64,000 nucleotides of DNA from Eledone cirrhosa (Eukaryota): assembly GCA_964016885.1 (NCBI GenBank), contig OZ024742.1, positions 269,204,001-269,268,000 on the forward strand. The letters run 5' to 3'. This document shows, piece by piece, positions 6,802 through 44,760 of the stretch. The notes below the pieces were generated by a model. It was not told where the DNA came from, did no database searches, and saw nothing but the letters and a program-made list of their open reading frames with translations. Made by a program: the position numbers and the translations under genes. Each line of letters opens with the position of its first letter. Position 1 is the stretch's first letter.

Positions 6802-7316
6802 ATAGTATATTTGACAGTATACTGTATGTTTAATTAAAAACATTTAGAAGGCCATTCGCTATGTGACTTAAAGAAGTGACCATGTTACTTACTTATTCTC
6901 GCCAAAAACAACAGAGAGCGGCCGACAGACAGTCTGTTTCTGACTTATGAGTGATTATCAAGACTACATACTCAGTTGCCTTTGCTGAGAATTATAGAAG
7001 CGGGATTCTTATAGAATTCCAGTAATAATCAAGAGCTGATTAAACGGCGATTTCCGGTGCAGGAAAAATTACGTATTAGTATTGGTACTCTGAAATAGCG
7101 TTGTATACATGAAATTAGGTATAGTATATTTCGCAATATACTGTATGTTTAATTAAACACATTTAGAAGAGCATTCGCTATGAGTTTTAAAGTAGTGACT
7201 ATGTCACTTACTTATTCTCGGCAAAAACAAAACACAGCATCCGAAACATACAGTATATTGCCAAATATACTGTACAAACTTTCATGCATACATCGCTAAT
7301 TCAGGGCACCGATACT
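6802..7316 (-). mobile_element. Non-coding 319-bp unit + partial tandem copy + inverted arm, carrying a decayed hammerhead (retrozyme/PLE-like)
   Basis: Direct repeat 6802-6925 / 7121-7244; inverted arms 7078-7150 / 7244-7316; flanked by (TA)/(TG) tracts. Confidence 0.65.
6918..6967 (-). ncRNA. Degenerate type I hammerhead ribozyme
   Basis: rc: gtagtc TTGATAA tcac-tcataa-gtca GAAA caga-ctg-tctg TC ggccgc; two core transitions relative to CTGATGA and a decayed stem I. Confidence 0.5.
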
Positions 7317-8259
7317 TTTATATATCTATATATCTATATATATATATATATATATATATATATATATATATATATATATATATATATATATATATATATA
7401 TATATAAATATATATAAGTGTTGAGTATGGGTTGGTTGTTTACCGACACCTCAGTATGAAGTTTGGAGCACTCGACGAAGTACGCAGGTTGGTTTGTTTA
7501 CACCGGAGTAATGTAAAATAAGTAACTCAAACATGTTAAATTTGGCTTCGTTGATTATAATTCTCTGCTATATATATTTAAGTGACAGCTATTATTGGCT
7601 GTGACCTCATCATGCAGTATGAATTAATGTAGAAAAACAGATAAACATGGTGTTGAAATTTGACGGTCCCCAAATATATATATATATATATATATATATA
7701 TATGTTTCCTCCAAAATATACACAGCAAACATATCAAAATAAGTAAATAATCTATTATTGAACAAAACACAAGCTGAAAGGCTAAAACACACAATAACAG
7801 TTAATATGAAAAGAACAACATACGCAACAGTTAACGAACTTTACAGACAGAAACGCATTAACGCTAAGGAAGTCCGAAATATCACCACACCAAACGAGAG
7901 GGATGACTTCATGAGCGTCATTGGACGTGAAACGAAATACGCCCGAAACGAATGCAATAGGCATTTCAATAAGAAATTAGAATGGATGAATAAGAAAAAA
8001 CTAGAAGAAAGAAAAATAGAATATTCACAAAAATACCCAGATAACATCAACAATATCCGGATGACTGATGTAGAACTACCGGAAGAATTTACCAATGACC
8101 ACAGAGTAAATATTTATGGGAACACTTTAATCAGTGAACAAGAAGAATAAATCCTGCAGCTACCACCAAAATTTGCTATCTACAAAAAGATTAACCCTAT
8201 TGAGTGCAAAACGAAGCTGGAAAAGTGTTTCACAAAAATACGTTGGAATGCAAAAGTAA

Positions 8260-8790
8260 ACAACAACATCAACAATAATAACGATAGTAATAATATAAAC
8301 AATAACTCTGAGTATAGAAATAACAGCTATAATAGTAATAGTCATAACAATAACAATAGCAGGAGAGTGAGAAATAGTAATAATGGTAATAATATTAACG
8401 ATAAACGGAACAACAACAACAACCACAATAATAATAATAATAGAAACATTAACTACAGACACAGCAGCAGCGACCACAGTAGTAATAACAGTAACAATAC
8501 GAATAACAACAACCACAGTGGTAATAATAGAAATAATATATGTAGCAACGTTAATGATAGACACAATAAAAACAAGAAACATAATAAAAATAACAACCAC
8601 AATGGTAGAAATAACAGTAACAACAACAATAACGGTGGAGAAAACAACAACAATACATCTAACAATCACAGCAACAATATATCTAGCAATCATAACAATA
8701 ATAATAATGCTAATGATAGGTACAACAACAACCACCATAATAACAATAATAGCAACACACACAATTATGACGATAGATATAATGACAACC
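8260..8790 (+). repeat. Degenerate (AAC/AAT)n tract encoding an in-frame Asn-rich segment of the PLE ORF
   Basis: Frame is open from 8151 to 8945, linking ILQLPPKF...IRWN to PLEKLNFNP. Confidence 0.75.
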
Positions 8791-11427
8791 CCTTAGAGAA
8801 ACTAAACTTCAACCCAGCTGACAAAACATATAAGATGGGTAATATCTATCCTACGAGGTTACCCTTTAATAAAAGAGTTTGCATACTACAACAAATAGAT
8901 GACAAGACAGAGGCACAGTTCACCATAGCTAGAAATAAGATTTAGACCGGTAAACTAAGAGAACGAGCAGACCAGAGGTCCAACAACTTTGGAGGAAACC
9001 TGTAGAAGGCTTGGTTAGCCTCAAGCAACGCACAAGGGATAGTGAGGTAGTATGTCTACCCACGGATAAGTCTGGTAGGATGTCAATAGAGAGCATGCCG
9101 AACTTCATCAAGGCTATGCAACCCCAAATCACCAACACGAGCGAAATTGCACAGCAAATACATGATAGGAGAGAGAACATCCTCAACGTTCACATGAAGA
9201 TGTGGGCTGACATCCTAAAGCCAAGCAGACGCACTGCCCACAACTTACAGGCGTCCAACAGTGGCATACCACCCTTGTATGGGCCCTGCAAAGACCACAA
9301 GGCAGTCGACGACCCGACAACATGACCACCAACAAGACTTATATGTGGAGCAAATATAGCAAGCAACTACAGGAACTCCTATTTCCTCTCAATGGTTATA
9401 CGCCCCATAATCAAGATGTCCCCAGATTTATGTGACAGTACAGATGACCTCCTCAGCTGAATCAGTGAGTGCAACAACACAGGAATCTATCCAACTGCAT
9501 AATAGGCAGTATGGATGTGGTATCACTGTACCTATCGATTAACATTGATTTTGCTGTGGAAAAATGTGTGGAGATGATCATTGAGAGTGAGGTGGAGTTC
9601 TGCTACGTCTAACAGACGAACTGGGCCTCCTACTTAAATTTACCTACGACACTTACTACCTAGACAGGCATGACCTTAGGCGTTTCTGCCCCTGTAGAAC
9701 CATAAGAGGTAGACCCCCCACCATAACCTCAATGGCAAGAAAGACTACCATGGGAAGGTGGATTGGGTGGACCCAAGCTATACGGACCCCCCAAAACAAT
9801 GATCAGGTAAGAAAAATGGTCGCACATGCAATAGGGGCTAGTATCAAAACTACCCTAAAGGGCCACATATTCAAGTTCAACGAGAAGTTCTACACCCAAA
9901 ATGAGGAAGCAGCCATTGGCGTCAGCATAGCTGGTGACGTTGCCAACCTTTTTATGGTATGGTGGGAAAGGAGACTCAAAGATCTCCTTGATGAAGAGCT
10001 CCATAGACCTCATCATGTACTCTCGTTACGCAGATGACATCAATATAGTAATAAGGACATCCCCACAAGAGAGTACTACCAAGTTTGATTTAGAACGTAG
10101 CACACTGGAAAGCATCCAACAGATAGCTCATTCCATACACCAGAATATAACTGTAACTATCGACTACGCTTCCAAACACCCTAACAATAGACTACCTGTA
10201 TTAGACACGGAACTCTGGATTAACACTATAGACGAGAGAGCCCAAATTCTCCACTCACACTATGCTAAACCCATGGCCTCCAAATACCTGATACTAAAAA
10301 ACTCAGCAATGTCCAGTAGTGCTAAGTTTAATATTCTGATTGCAGGCATGGTACGAGTGATGAAGACCGTGTCCCGCATGTGAGAACCAACAAAAATGGA
10401 AAGACACATCCAACACTTCAACAACCGCATGCAGTTCTTTGGCTACAACCAAAGAGACAGAATCAGAGTATATGAAGGAGCCACGGAGAAGTATAAGGCC
10501 CACATACAACTGGACATGAAAGGAGTTTTCCCATTATACAGAAGCAAATATCAAGGAATAGCTTAGATAGGACTAAACATAAGAGAGGGAAACCACCTCA
10601 TGGTACGACAACCAGAGATACCGGAGTGTCATGTTTGTGGACGCTACCTCTGGAGGGAAATTAGCTAACCAGTGTAGAAAGGCCATGAGAAAGACCCACT
10701 TAAAGATTAAGGTGGTAGAAAAGCCAGGAACCACCATAAAATCCCTGATCAGCAAAACCTACCCTTTTCAGAAAACCAACTGTACTAATAGGAAATGTGT
10801 TACATGTAGAGTAAACCCCGAGATAAATTGTAAAACTAGAAACGTAGTCTATAGCATAAGATGTACAGAGGGTACTTGCAGAAACATGACAACAACATAC
10901 ATAGGCGAGACAGCTCGTAGCATATGTGAAAGGATAGACCAACACTGGGGGGAACTAAAAGGACGAAAAACGGTTCATTACTATACGAACATGCCAGCCA
11001 ACAACACAACGGTAACATAGACAACATAGAAGTTAGAATAATATCTAAACATAGAAATGAACCAGCAGATATGCAAATCAGAGAGGCCAGCGAAATAGAA
11101 CTTAGAAGGCCAAGGCTAAATAGAAAAAATGAATGGAATAACAACAAAACCCAAACAAACAACACTGACCTAAGAGAAGTATAAATAATTAAATAAATGA
11201 ATAAATACAGAAGCACAATAACAACAAATACATATAAACACACACTAGTAAACTAATATAGAATACATTAACCAATACACAGTAACCCAAACAAGAACAC
11301 ACATCAAACAAAACACTATACACACACGCAAACGCATGCGCAGAGAAGACAAGAAAATAAACAAATAAATAAATAGACTAAATAAAGATGGCGTAAGCAT
11401 ACAATGCAACGGGAGGAAACATAATAG

Positions 11428-11471
11428 CACCACTGACGATGTTGCAGATGTGCAACGAAAGAACTTTGATA
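11428..11471 (+). ncRNA. Minimal type I hammerhead ribozyme in PLE pLTR
   Basis: cacca CTGACGA t gttgca-gatg-tgcaac GAAA gaac TT tgata; stem I imperfect. Confidence 0.65.
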
Positions 11472-43797: not shown

Positions 43798-43822
43798 TGC
43801 GATAATTTTTTCAGTAGAATGT

Positions 43823-44110
43823 TTTGATCAATCCTTTCAAAGACCTTGCTGAATCAAGCTCACATCAGTGTCAGAGCCCTCTCCCAAAGCTCTTAACATG
43901 TCATGAAAGTGATGCGGGACCTGCTTTAGGCATTCCCTTCCATAACGGAACCCATGTTAGTTGGCGTTCAGCAGATGTTGCTTTCAAGAAAATGAATTAT
44001 TCCTGTTCTTATCGTTCACTCAAATACATTAATGATACGAGAAACGAGAGAGATGGGACGGCAATTCATTGTAAAGGACTTAATTCCCTTTATTTAAACT
44101 GGAACAACAG
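43823..44110 (-). mobile_element. CR1-like LINE RT fragment
   Basis: rc reads approximately LLNAN*HGFRYGRECL...HHFHDMLRALGEGSDTDV...LDSARSLKG (QHGFR, DFSKAFD-like). Confidence 0.65.
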
Positions 44111-44160
44111 GCTAGGAAAAAATGTGTTCAGCTATATATAAATAAATTCATATAAAGGCA

Positions 44161-44760
44161 TATATAATTGAATATAAAAGAGAGATAAACACAGATATAA
44201 ACATATATGTGTTCAAATCGTAATAGAGTTTCTAACTCAATATATACCTTTGATATATTCGGCTCCTTCAATTTTGTTGAGCTAATGTAAATGTCGTGTA
44301 ATCTTGGCTGCTATTGTTAGTACTATATGTTTATGAGATACGCTAGGTTCTGAAGCCATGTACGTTATTTTATATACACACACTATTCAGTCTACTGAGA
44401 TACTTAGAAGTGAAGGGTTTACTAATTTTACACCCACTGATGAGCAAATAATTGGTAATTTCCTTTCGCTAAAATTGCGAAACTGCATCACCAAAAGTTG
44501 CCTGCAGTTTCCCAATATAGGTTTGCATTTCTTTTCTTCATTTATTATTTTAAATTAAGTCTGGCAAACCCTATTGTTCATAGTTAGTATTCTTTACACC
44601 CTTGCGAATCTGGTCCCTTAAGATTTGAACACATAGATGTTTATATATGTGTTTATCTCTCTTTTATATTCAATTATATTACACGCTCAGAAAAACCTCT
44701 TTGAGCTATTTAATTATAAGAGACCATTTTGAGTTTCTAACTCTATACCATTGATATATA
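44161..44760 (+). mobile_element. Inverted piece + repeated terminus + 505-bp unit with hammerhead-like motif (44432-44512)
   Basis: 44161-44223 is the inverse of about 44619-44680; gagtttctaactc at 44226 and 44731; CTGATGA gcaa...ttgc GAAA ctgca...tgcag TT, but stem I does not pair. Confidence 0.65.

Follow-up and report, generated by a model that had tools for sequence, protein, structure and literature searches.

The window analysed here, 64,000 nucleotides from the genome of Eledone cirrhosa, carries four repeats next to TA tracts that each combine a unit, a second copy of its terminal piece and an inverted partial copy, which raises the question of what these repeats are and how they are copied. 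Self-BLAST of the masked window recovered this layout for all four, here named A to D (Table 1), with the periods of 319, 656, 441 and 505 bp proposed in the initial annotation. The corresponding consensus lengths are 321, 656, 433 and 518 bp. Also as proposed, the units are unrelated to each other and non-coding: they define separate high-copy families without an ORF, dispersed genome-wide (4288, 2177, 1869 and 3024 first-look candidates for A, B, C and D, among which scoring was limited to 40 loci per family). Likewise, the 23-nt B hammerhead core has 312 exact matches in the genome, and its reversed control none. Their small, non-coding, low-GC monomers lie head-to-tail, mostly as partial tandems and reaching at most 3.1 monomers. 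A to D belong to a known class, that of the non-LTR retrozymes or non-autonomous Penelope-like elements (PLEs).

Table 1. Positions of arms, hammerheads and neighbouring elements in the window.
Feature	Position	Strand	Description
A direct repeat	6802-6933/7121-7254		self-BLAST
A long arm	6791-7254	-	outer end tailless; 1.45 monomers of 319-321 bp
A type I hammerhead	6918-6967	-	U3-A8 core at 6961; predicted cut 6924/6923; stem II decayed in this copy
A inverted arm pair	7078-7150/7244-7316		self-BLAST
A inverted arm	7244-7316	+	outer end tailed; no hammerhead; self-BLAST
ORF-bearing PLE, broken	7704-11664	+	RT and C-terminal GIY-YIG-like region; minimal hammerhead at 11433 in 3' pLTR
Foldback E	11753-12360		same interval in self-BLAST; two truncated pLTR arms, both tailless; hammerhead cores at 11977 (-) and 12136 (+)
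B long arm	13744-14420	-	outer end tailed; 1.03 monomers of 656 bp
B inverted arm pair	13852-14302/14420-14860		self-BLAST; 95.6% identity
B type I hammerhead	14132-14210	-	core at 14204; long stem II; short palindromic stem III; predicted cut 14138/14137
B inverted arm	14420-14867	+	outer end tailless, unit position 98; decayed hammerhead at 14518
Foldback F	14911-15134		self-BLAST 14995-15134; short arms, tailed and tailless; abundant family; both arms stop inside hammerhead
C long arm	15186-15648	-	outer end tailed; 1.05 monomers of 433-441 bp; hammerhead core at 15502; predicted cut 15472/15471
C inverted arm pair	15245-16044		self-BLAST
C inverted arm	15647-16048	+	outer end tailless; intact hammerhead core at 15772
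Foldback G	16194-17487		self-BLAST 16261-17487; tailed and tailless arms; hammerheads at 16320 (-) and 17428 (+); microsatellite-rich body
D inverted arm pair	44162-44223/44618-44679		self-BLAST
D inverted arm	44162-44223	-	outer end tailless; no hammerhead; self-BLAST
D long arm	44226-44759	+	outer end tailed; 1.06 monomers of 505-518 bp; hammerhead core at 44437

A scan with the Rfam hammerhead models, suggested in the initial annotation, retrieved no match in the window at E≤1, nor in three monomer-sized stretches at E≤10, and hammerheads were therefore sought with a descriptor. Descriptor matches and stem pairing identified one type I hammerhead per monomer in each of the four families; the window holds five complete motifs, whereas 50 block shuffles averaged 0.02. 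Because Rfam misses these hammerheads, such families are likely under-annotated. The claim of one hammerhead per unit thus stands for all four families, but not for every window copy: that of A is decayed in stem II, and that of D has lost, with respect to the consensus, its cut site together with the 3' strand of stem I. Moreover, the 319-bp A unit has no CUGANGA, and its core is a U3-A8 variant on the minus strand, for which we found 14 descriptor matches at other loci. Relatives of A, C and D with ca. 61-78% identity retain the hammerhead, with compensatory changes in the stems. The consensus monomers of A, B, C and D, folded as circles, gave z values of -7.9, -3.5, -7.1 and -8.0, compared with at least -1.7 in seven of eight control segments and -4.6 in the other one; in the circular minimum-energy folds, all three hammerhead stems form only in A and the core is mispaired in B and D. 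Of the four window copies, two could yield the long double-stranded RNA with (predicted) ribozymes on both strands that the foldbacks had been expected to give, since only B and C carry hammerheads on both arms and the inverted arms of A (73 bp) and D (62 bp) have none.

It could be argued that A to D are no more than 5'-truncated pLTRs of ordinary ORF-bearing PLEs, and this does explain foldback E, two relatives of which (L152 and L154) continue into a PLE ORF, with RT and GIY-YIG domains encoded between pLTRs; the scored copies of A to D are, besides, a small share of the total. For A to D, however, this origin is largely refuted, and we consider it very improbable. Scanning of consensus trimers for ORFs gave stop-free stretches of at most 44-107 aa, depending on the family, and the monomer passes into a further monomer, in some loci beyond two, rather than into a PLE ORF. 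In tblastn comparisons with PLE proteins, none of 67 unpaired inner flanks showed a sense-strand ORF, and the matches in three of them were all antisense to the element RNA; the genome-wide BLAST and consensus building advised in the initial annotation thus gave high-copy families with no link to an ORF in these flanks. Among the first 100 of the 312 listed B cores, examined by eye, five same-strand pairs were 648-675 bp apart and none was spaced by 2-6 kb. By trimers, B-core spacing and inner flanks alike, an RT and GIY-YIG ORF between pLTRs is absent from A to D.

The other foldbacks in the window, reported at 11745, 14911 and 16194, are all present but do not form a uniform group. The one at 11745 (E), just described, is related to the end of an ORF-bearing PLE and is truncated, and that at 14911 (F), with a U3-A8 core, stops inside its hammerhead. 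The third (G) belongs to a young family, with 95-100% identity among copies sampled genome-wide with positions 17000-17260 as a query, and no ORF linked to it was seen.

The insertions of A, B, C and D have their outer ends fixed at two sites that are, respectively, ca. 31, 101, 56 and 89 bp apart, the difference being the Penelope 'tail'. An inverted arm is missing in 67 of 126 loci; the other 59 comprise 52 that join a tailed to a tailless arm, one with both arms scored alike and six with an eroded end. The tailed and tailless combination therefore occurs in 52 of 53 scorable foldbacks (p 1e-14), and the sole exception also reads this way by eye, although neighbouring families break the rule (foldback E, L090 and, apparently, L063). 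The association with TA tracts was confirmed, as (TA)3 lies within 20 nt of 154 of the 175 classified outer ends, compared with 15% of positions drawn at random from these loci. Two fixed ends, unlike arms and the absence of an ORF bear out the view of A to D as non-autonomous hammerhead monomers with insertions of PLE type, and their two-armed insertions in (TA)n were likely copied by Penelope-like enzymes. Each arm has sequence missing from its partner in 18 of 52 loci and in 7 of the 10 that a short query retrieved as a length-unbiased B set, a pattern indicative of twin priming on RNA; that PLEs drive such priming of the non-autonomous monomers is, in our assessment, highly probable.

One arm is contained in the other in the remaining 34 of the 52 loci, as would be expected if the inverted arm arose by snap-back self-priming, with one arm copied from the other, a mechanism that has been proposed for PLEs (PMC3846280, accessible text). 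Nevertheless, mutual non-containment contradicts it, and pairs such as that of locus L126, where the two arms do not overlap at all, exclude it as a general mechanism. An origin as DNA foldback or MITE-like transposons is in turn at odds with two ends that differ in sequence by the tail instead of forming matching terminal inverted repeats, with arm lengths that vary freely and with the many loci devoid of an inverted arm. We thus regard an origin by self-priming or from DNA transposons as most improbable.

As for the repeated terminus, it is the start of another head-to-tail round, extending arms past one monomer by 1 to 1125 bp. Of the two origins contemplated in the initial annotation, a target-site duplication was rejected because the repeat is internal element sequence of varying length (real short target duplications are unreadable inside TA runs), and copying around a circular or tandem template was supported by the head-to-tail continuation. 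In the length-unbiased B set, 16 of the 18 arms that reach the cut site continue beyond it, and two end within 8 nt of it, one exactly there. Among all 185 arms, most of them from loci chosen with full-monomer queries, 14 cross the cut site twice and one crosses it three times, and 5' ends do not pile up there (four within 8 nt, with 6.5 expected). Arms that run through the ribozyme cut site indicate that the template was likely either a circle or an uncut multimer, and we judge the circle slightly better than an even bet against the linear form.

In the linear alternative, PLEs would carry out twin priming on linear RNA transcribed from a source locus of two or three monomers and left uncut, with the hammerhead trimming or parasitising transcripts and local tandem duplication restoring length. 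This explains the read-through equally well, and it agrees with the occurrence of loci of 2-3.1 monomers and with unprocessed RNA being the main substrate in vitro (PMC11167929). Pooled differences, too, are fewer between in-phase opposite arms (267 in 10001 bp) than between tandem monomers (550 in 12587 bp), but the in-phase advantage in allele sharing was gone in a paired three-copy test (2 in-phase, 6 off-phase, 4 tandem-only and 27 in all three). Sites with a non-consensus allele thus numbered 27 where all three copies in a locus had it and 12 where just two did; the shared alleles belong for the most part to subfamilies, and are hence evidence for a common source lineage and not for one molecule. 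Gene conversion could contribute extra sharing, and in family A allele sharing is no higher between tandem monomers (0.06) than between different loci (0.05). Locus L235, with two adjacent monomers more similar than the others and sharing 8 alleles missing from its other copies, is compatible with a local duplication at a later stage, or with a multimer whose units were not uniform, and length could thus be regained without a circle. On the other hand, the first 100 of the 312 listed B cores include no long master array, the consensus monomers fold strongly as circles, and cutting is favoured by hammerheads that are intact, show compensatory changes and, in A and D, have a stable stem III. We therefore hold the uncut multimer to be possible, but on the doubtful side.

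Mobilisation had been attributed to the PLE lying between A and B, for which we obtained no support. Its insertion style is the same as that of A to D, but this copy is broken, and low-stringency BLAST and tblastn revealed no similarity to them. ORF-bearing PLEs are abundant in the genome, with 29,294 and 58,769 first-look candidates for two families, and a copy whose open frame spans 1141 aa shows a layout like that of A to D with a tail of ca. 30 nt. No similarity of A to D to the pLTR or 3' end of these two sampled families was found (BLAST, tblastn), and when the consensuses were compared by low-stringency BLAST with 206 retrieved loci, 50 of them PLE endonuclease loci, no PLE partner was identified either. 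A peptide search with the D end retrieved chance frames only, the four longer ones being TA-run or neighbour frames. Comparisons of the PLE proteins with Pfam and PDB gave only weak RT or GIY-YIG matches, and the PLE and clade labels are, besides sequence motifs, partly what we take these proteins to be. The motifs are described in the accessible text of PMC8557442. The idea of a distinct 'foldback retrozyme system' was not supported, since a partial tandem, an inverted arm and a tail also characterize the ORF-bearing PLE of this genome and, from the accessible portions of PMC8557442 and PMC3846280, are an ordinary PLE form.

In all, we propose, with a probability of roughly 0.8, that A to D are protein-free elements, with one predicted hammerhead per monomer, moved in trans by the RT and endonuclease of PLEs, probably from a circular RNA template. 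Multimeric loci would be transcribed and cut into monomers by the hammerheads, acting as dimers in B and C, with their short palindromic stem III, and as monomers in A and D; a host ligase may then close the monomers into circles. The PLE enzyme would open a TA run by a nick in each strand and, by twin priming, reverse-transcribe a single RNA from two internal sites of fixed position, and microhomology would join the two truncated cDNA ends, leaving a tailed and a tailless arm head to head. In favour of this, a PLE protein cuts and extends both strands at AT-rich DNA, with two internal start sites defining the tail; against it, the strands were not seen to differ in start site in vitro, nor was hammerhead cleavage required (PMC11167929). 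More tentatively, and somewhat short of an even chance, a dimeric PLE enzyme might bind one hammerhead-made circle and prime the two strands from strand-assigned start sites, the insertions being a rolling-circle, twin-primed record. If so, they would prove directly, through their anatomy, that PLEs use the circles of animal retrozymes as substrates, and strand-assigned start sites would give a reason for the Penelope tail being at one end only.

Similar elements are known. Like A to D, metazoan non-LTR retrozymes consist of non-coding monomers of low GC content (34-38%), arranged head-to-tail and bearing one type I hammerhead apiece; circular RNA intermediates were proposed for them, with PLEs as likely helpers (Cervera and de la Pena 2020, PMC7229834, accessible text). 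Expression and circles were demonstrated for those retrozymes, whereas for A to D they are predicted. A to D also differ as mostly dispersed insertions in which up to ca. three monomers are accompanied by a tail and an inverted arm; the main text of that paper does not use the word 'inverted'. The accessible text of a preprint reaches the same conclusion, that animal retrozymes are PLE hitchhikers, for consensus lengths of 51-972 bp, which include those of A to D (Li, Clavereau, Pollet, bioRxiv 10.64898/2026.07.22.740005). That conclusion was drawn mainly in vertebrates, from co-occurrence and from homology to pLTRs, and ours from the tail, twin arms and TA target; pLTR homology was not found for A to D in the two ORF-bearing families sampled. 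As described in the accessible parts of PMC8557442, PMC3846280 and PMC11167929, endonuclease-positive PLEs share with A to D the partial tandem, the inverted 5'-truncated arm, the tail at one end, (TA)n targeting and a hammerhead upstream of two internal start sites. Unlike them, A to D lack the RT/GIY-YIG ORF and have arms that wrap from monomer to monomer, and the tails of B to D (56-101 bp) exceed the 30-40 bp described. Non-autonomous Chlamys PLEs, e.g. MRC1, also form multicopy head-to-tail insertions, but they generally match autonomous families at the 3' end, whereas no such partner was found for A to D, and most Chlamys have no canonical hammerheads (PMC8557442, accessible text). With the minimal hammerheads of PLEs (Cervera and de la Pena 2014, PMC4209133, accessible text), ours share the type I topology, the short palindromic stem III (B, C), the U3-A8 core (A, F) and opposite-strand pairs 100-700 bp apart, but not the full 5-bp stem III of A and D or the long stem II inserts of B and D. 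Our literature search found neither these families nor a strict count of tailed and tailless arms, and subscription papers, Repbase/Dfam or supplements may hold either.

The class and the hypothesis of its mobility through PLEs were thus already known, and no host function is indicated for A to D; the contribution of this genome is its unusually clear insertion record. Its many young, short, ORF-free copies constrain the mechanism of PLE insertion, through the nearly invariable pairing of a tailed with a tailless arm, the arms that could not have been copied from each other and the read-through of the cut site, and favour twin priming over the self-priming model. With lengths of 321-656 nt, A to D also provide small RNA substrates for the in vitro PLE assay already available.

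The ORF-free hammerhead monomers A, B, C and D (window copies at 6802, 13748, 15186 and 44226) are additional families of an already described class of elements. Self-BLAST of the masked window recovered every repeat and inverted arm listed in the initial annotation, which also held the four units to be mutually unrelated and non-coding; indeed, the consensus monomers show no blastn similarity to each other and their stop-free stretches are all of 107 aa or less. Genome-wide BLAST and consensus building (40 candidates scored per search) indicated that each is a family dispersed throughout the 3.0 Gb host genome. 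Removing nine loci that represented the same place or near-identical duplicates reduced the 135 fetched loci to 126 (25 A, 53 B, 23 C and 25 D), with median identities to the consensus of 95, 97, 94 and 93%, for consensus monomers of 321, 656, 433 and 518 bp, respectively. A 23-nt piece of the B hammerhead retrieved 312 exact genomic matches, versus none for its reversed control. Among the first 100 of the 312 matches listed, inspection by eye revealed five same-strand pairs at one-monomer spacing and none spaced 2–6 kb; in this subset, 8 of 8 opposite-strand pairs less than 1 kb apart were head to head.

Rfam reported no hammerheads, either in the window or in monomer-sized stretches. A descriptor requiring the core and three stems found five motifs in the window, versus 0.02 in 50 shuffles; the window copies of A and D are decayed, and their motifs were taken from family members. 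All four monomers bear predicted self-cleaving hammerheads of type I topology: that of A has a U3-A8 core with stems I and III of 6 and 5 bp, that of D has stems I and III of 7 and 5 bp together with a long stem II, and stem III is short and palindromic both in C and in B, the latter having a long stem II. The hammerhead is kept, with compensatory changes, in diverged relatives of A (L050, ca. 67% identity), C (L023, L086 and L150, 61–63%) and D (L023, 78%), all of them chance finds among the fetched loci, where no intact diverged relative of B was found. Circular folding of the consensus monomers gave z values of −7.9 (A), −3.5 (B), −7.1 (C) and −8.0 (D; 15 shuffles), versus −4.6 to +1.5 for eight control segments (20 shuffles), and the circular minimum-energy fold contained all three hammerhead stems in A only.

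In every family the outer ends fall at two fixed positions that, in RNA sense, both lie 3′ of the hammerhead; they are ca. 31 (A), 101 (B), 56 (C) and 89 bp (D) apart. The stretch between them is the Penelope-like element (PLE) tail, a feature tied to two internal sites where reverse transcription starts (PMC11167929). A TA run lay within 20 nt of 154 of the 175 classified outer ends, compared to 15% for positions drawn at random from these loci and 5.7% for the window, which abounds in TA/TG microsatellites; the inner ends of the arms have no fixed position. In 59 of the 126 loci, an inverted second arm is joined head to head, with overlaps of 1–7 nt at 30 of the 59 junctions, a figure inflated by alignment ends. 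A tailed arm is paired with a tailless one in 52 of these 59 loci; six others have an eroded end, and the single locus scored as having like arms is tailed plus tailless when read by eye.

Self-primed copying, proposed for PLEs in PMC3846280, could also generate an inverted arm. We disfavour this origin because neither arm contains the other in 18 of 52 loci (7 of 10 in a short-query set without length bias) and the two arms of L126 do not overlap at all. Such arms must both derive from an RNA template. This speaks for twin priming on RNA as the source of the two arms, in agreement with the in vitro cutting and extension of both strands by PLE protein (PMC11167929).

The repeated terminus is the start of another monomer, and the length beyond one monomer varies among loci from 1 to 1125 bp. 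We thus reject a target duplication, one of the two sources initially contemplated for this repeat, and retain the other, copying of a circular or tandem template; the longest arm noted spans 3.1 monomers. Because arms continue past the predicted cut site (in the unbiased B set, 16 of 18; among 185 arms, 14 twice and one three times), the usual template cannot have been a linear monomer with both of its ends cut. Copies within a B locus have 52–61% of their non-consensus alleles in common, versus 12% between loci, and at three-copy sites the allele was in all three copies at 27 sites and in only two at 12, which fits one monomer being copied over and over, as on a circle. Against a circle, family A tandems lack excess allele sharing, the majority of shared alleles are subfamily alleles, L235 contains two monomers with eight alleles common to just them, and two unbiased B arms end at the cut site; an uncut multimer is a serious alternative as the template.

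No sense-strand PLE ORF was found at the 67 unpaired inner flanks of A–D: three contained PLE-protein matches, each of them antisense to the element. A G-type neighbour (G being the foldback family seen at 16194) was common to one pair of C flanks. ORF-bearing PLEs are plentiful in the genome. The copy at 7704-11664 is broken, its coding sequence being split among many frames. Another copy, 80–94% identical to it in protein, has an open frame of 1141 aa and, as in the A–D layout, a partial tandem, a tailless inverted arm and a ca. 30-nt tail reading into the ORF start. This local PLE had been proposed to mobilise the monomers, but A–D show no similarity to its family, nor to a second ORF-bearing family sampled, so it is unlikely to be their helper; the helper is likely some other PLE of this genome. 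The ORF-bearing PLE (window 7704-11664; L207:1064-4486) also contains an in-frame asparagine-rich insert of ca. 170 aa, N-terminal to the RT; comparable inserts are known from rotifer Penelope (PMC3846280).

Foldback E (11753) is a truncated PLE terminal repeat (pLTR) derived from a relative of the ORF-bearing PLE, and its relatives L152 and L154 extend into the PLE ORF; both its arms are tailless, breaking the tailed-plus-tailless rule. Foldback F (14911-15134), very common among fetched loci, has a hammerhead whose core, as read from L039 and L131, is of the U3-A8 type. Nearly all its arms terminate in the strong hammerhead stem II, 30–60 nt beyond the predicted cut, so its copies are uniformly tiny; this stem is possibly an RT stall site. 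G is very young (95–100% identity; window 16194-17487; L212-L234) and comprises ca. 570 bp of complex sequence and a TA/TG microsatellite-like body of more than 1 kb. No linked ORF was found in 19 + 4 loci, and L231 contains two G units 2.6 kb apart, the tail missing between them. A 10-nt motif common to the tails of F and G (14911-14990, 16194-16262 and L233) recurs within the 3′ region of a Hydra-like PLE that bears an ORF; this shared sequence may be a lead to the helper of F and G.

More hammerhead tandem families appeared by chance beside sampled loci (L023, L086, L150, L029, L173, L174, L207:5574-6501 and L008), with monomers of 466–467 bp (99% identical to each other) and 519–534 bp; the genome thus contains more than four such families. 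The PLE family at 53335 has a 209-bp tandem in its 3′ region, and the 1.1 kb 3′ of its endonuclease yielded no plausible hammerhead in 25 loci, with one loose match. Two of the non-LTR retrotransposon copies are 90–94% identical, inverted and ca. 58 kb apart.

Other repeats in the window
Feature	Coordinates	Strand	Remarks
Hydra-like PLE fragments	12390-13550, 53335-54082, 54500-56400, 56550-58200		label inferred from motifs
Non-LTR retrotransposon copy	107-4741	-	endonuclease + RT; presumably L1/Tx1-like
Non-LTR retrotransposon copy	61234-64000	+	endonuclease + RT; presumably L1/Tx1-like
Non-LTR retrotransposon copy	39500-43800		endonuclease + RT; presumably L1/Tx1-like
SINE-like dispersed repeat	6008-6186, 25423, 28796, 36152, 46190, 47532, 47670, 57149		at least 8 pieces
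Short TA-flanked repeat	7417-7672		directly upstream of the 7704-11664 PLE; relatives in L007, L078, L089

Tandem type I hammerhead monomers like A–D are found in non-LTR retrozymes (PMC7229834), which were concluded to be non-autonomous PLE sequences (bioRxiv 10.64898/2026.07.22.740005); PLEs have likewise been described with a partial tandem, an inverted arm, a tail on one side and insertion targeted to (TA)n (PMC8557442); and the U3-A8 core and opposite-strand pairs, both present here, were already known (PMC4209133). A–D thus join this known class and do not form the separate foldback retrozyme system initially proposed. The putative dsRNA is an idea relevant just to long-armed foldbacks. 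In the open-access main texts searched, we found neither a tail signature counted on ORF-free retrozymes nor the near-strict tailed-plus-tailless rule. Together, the counted signature and this rule open both the mechanism of PLE priming and the circle hypothesis to direct tests.
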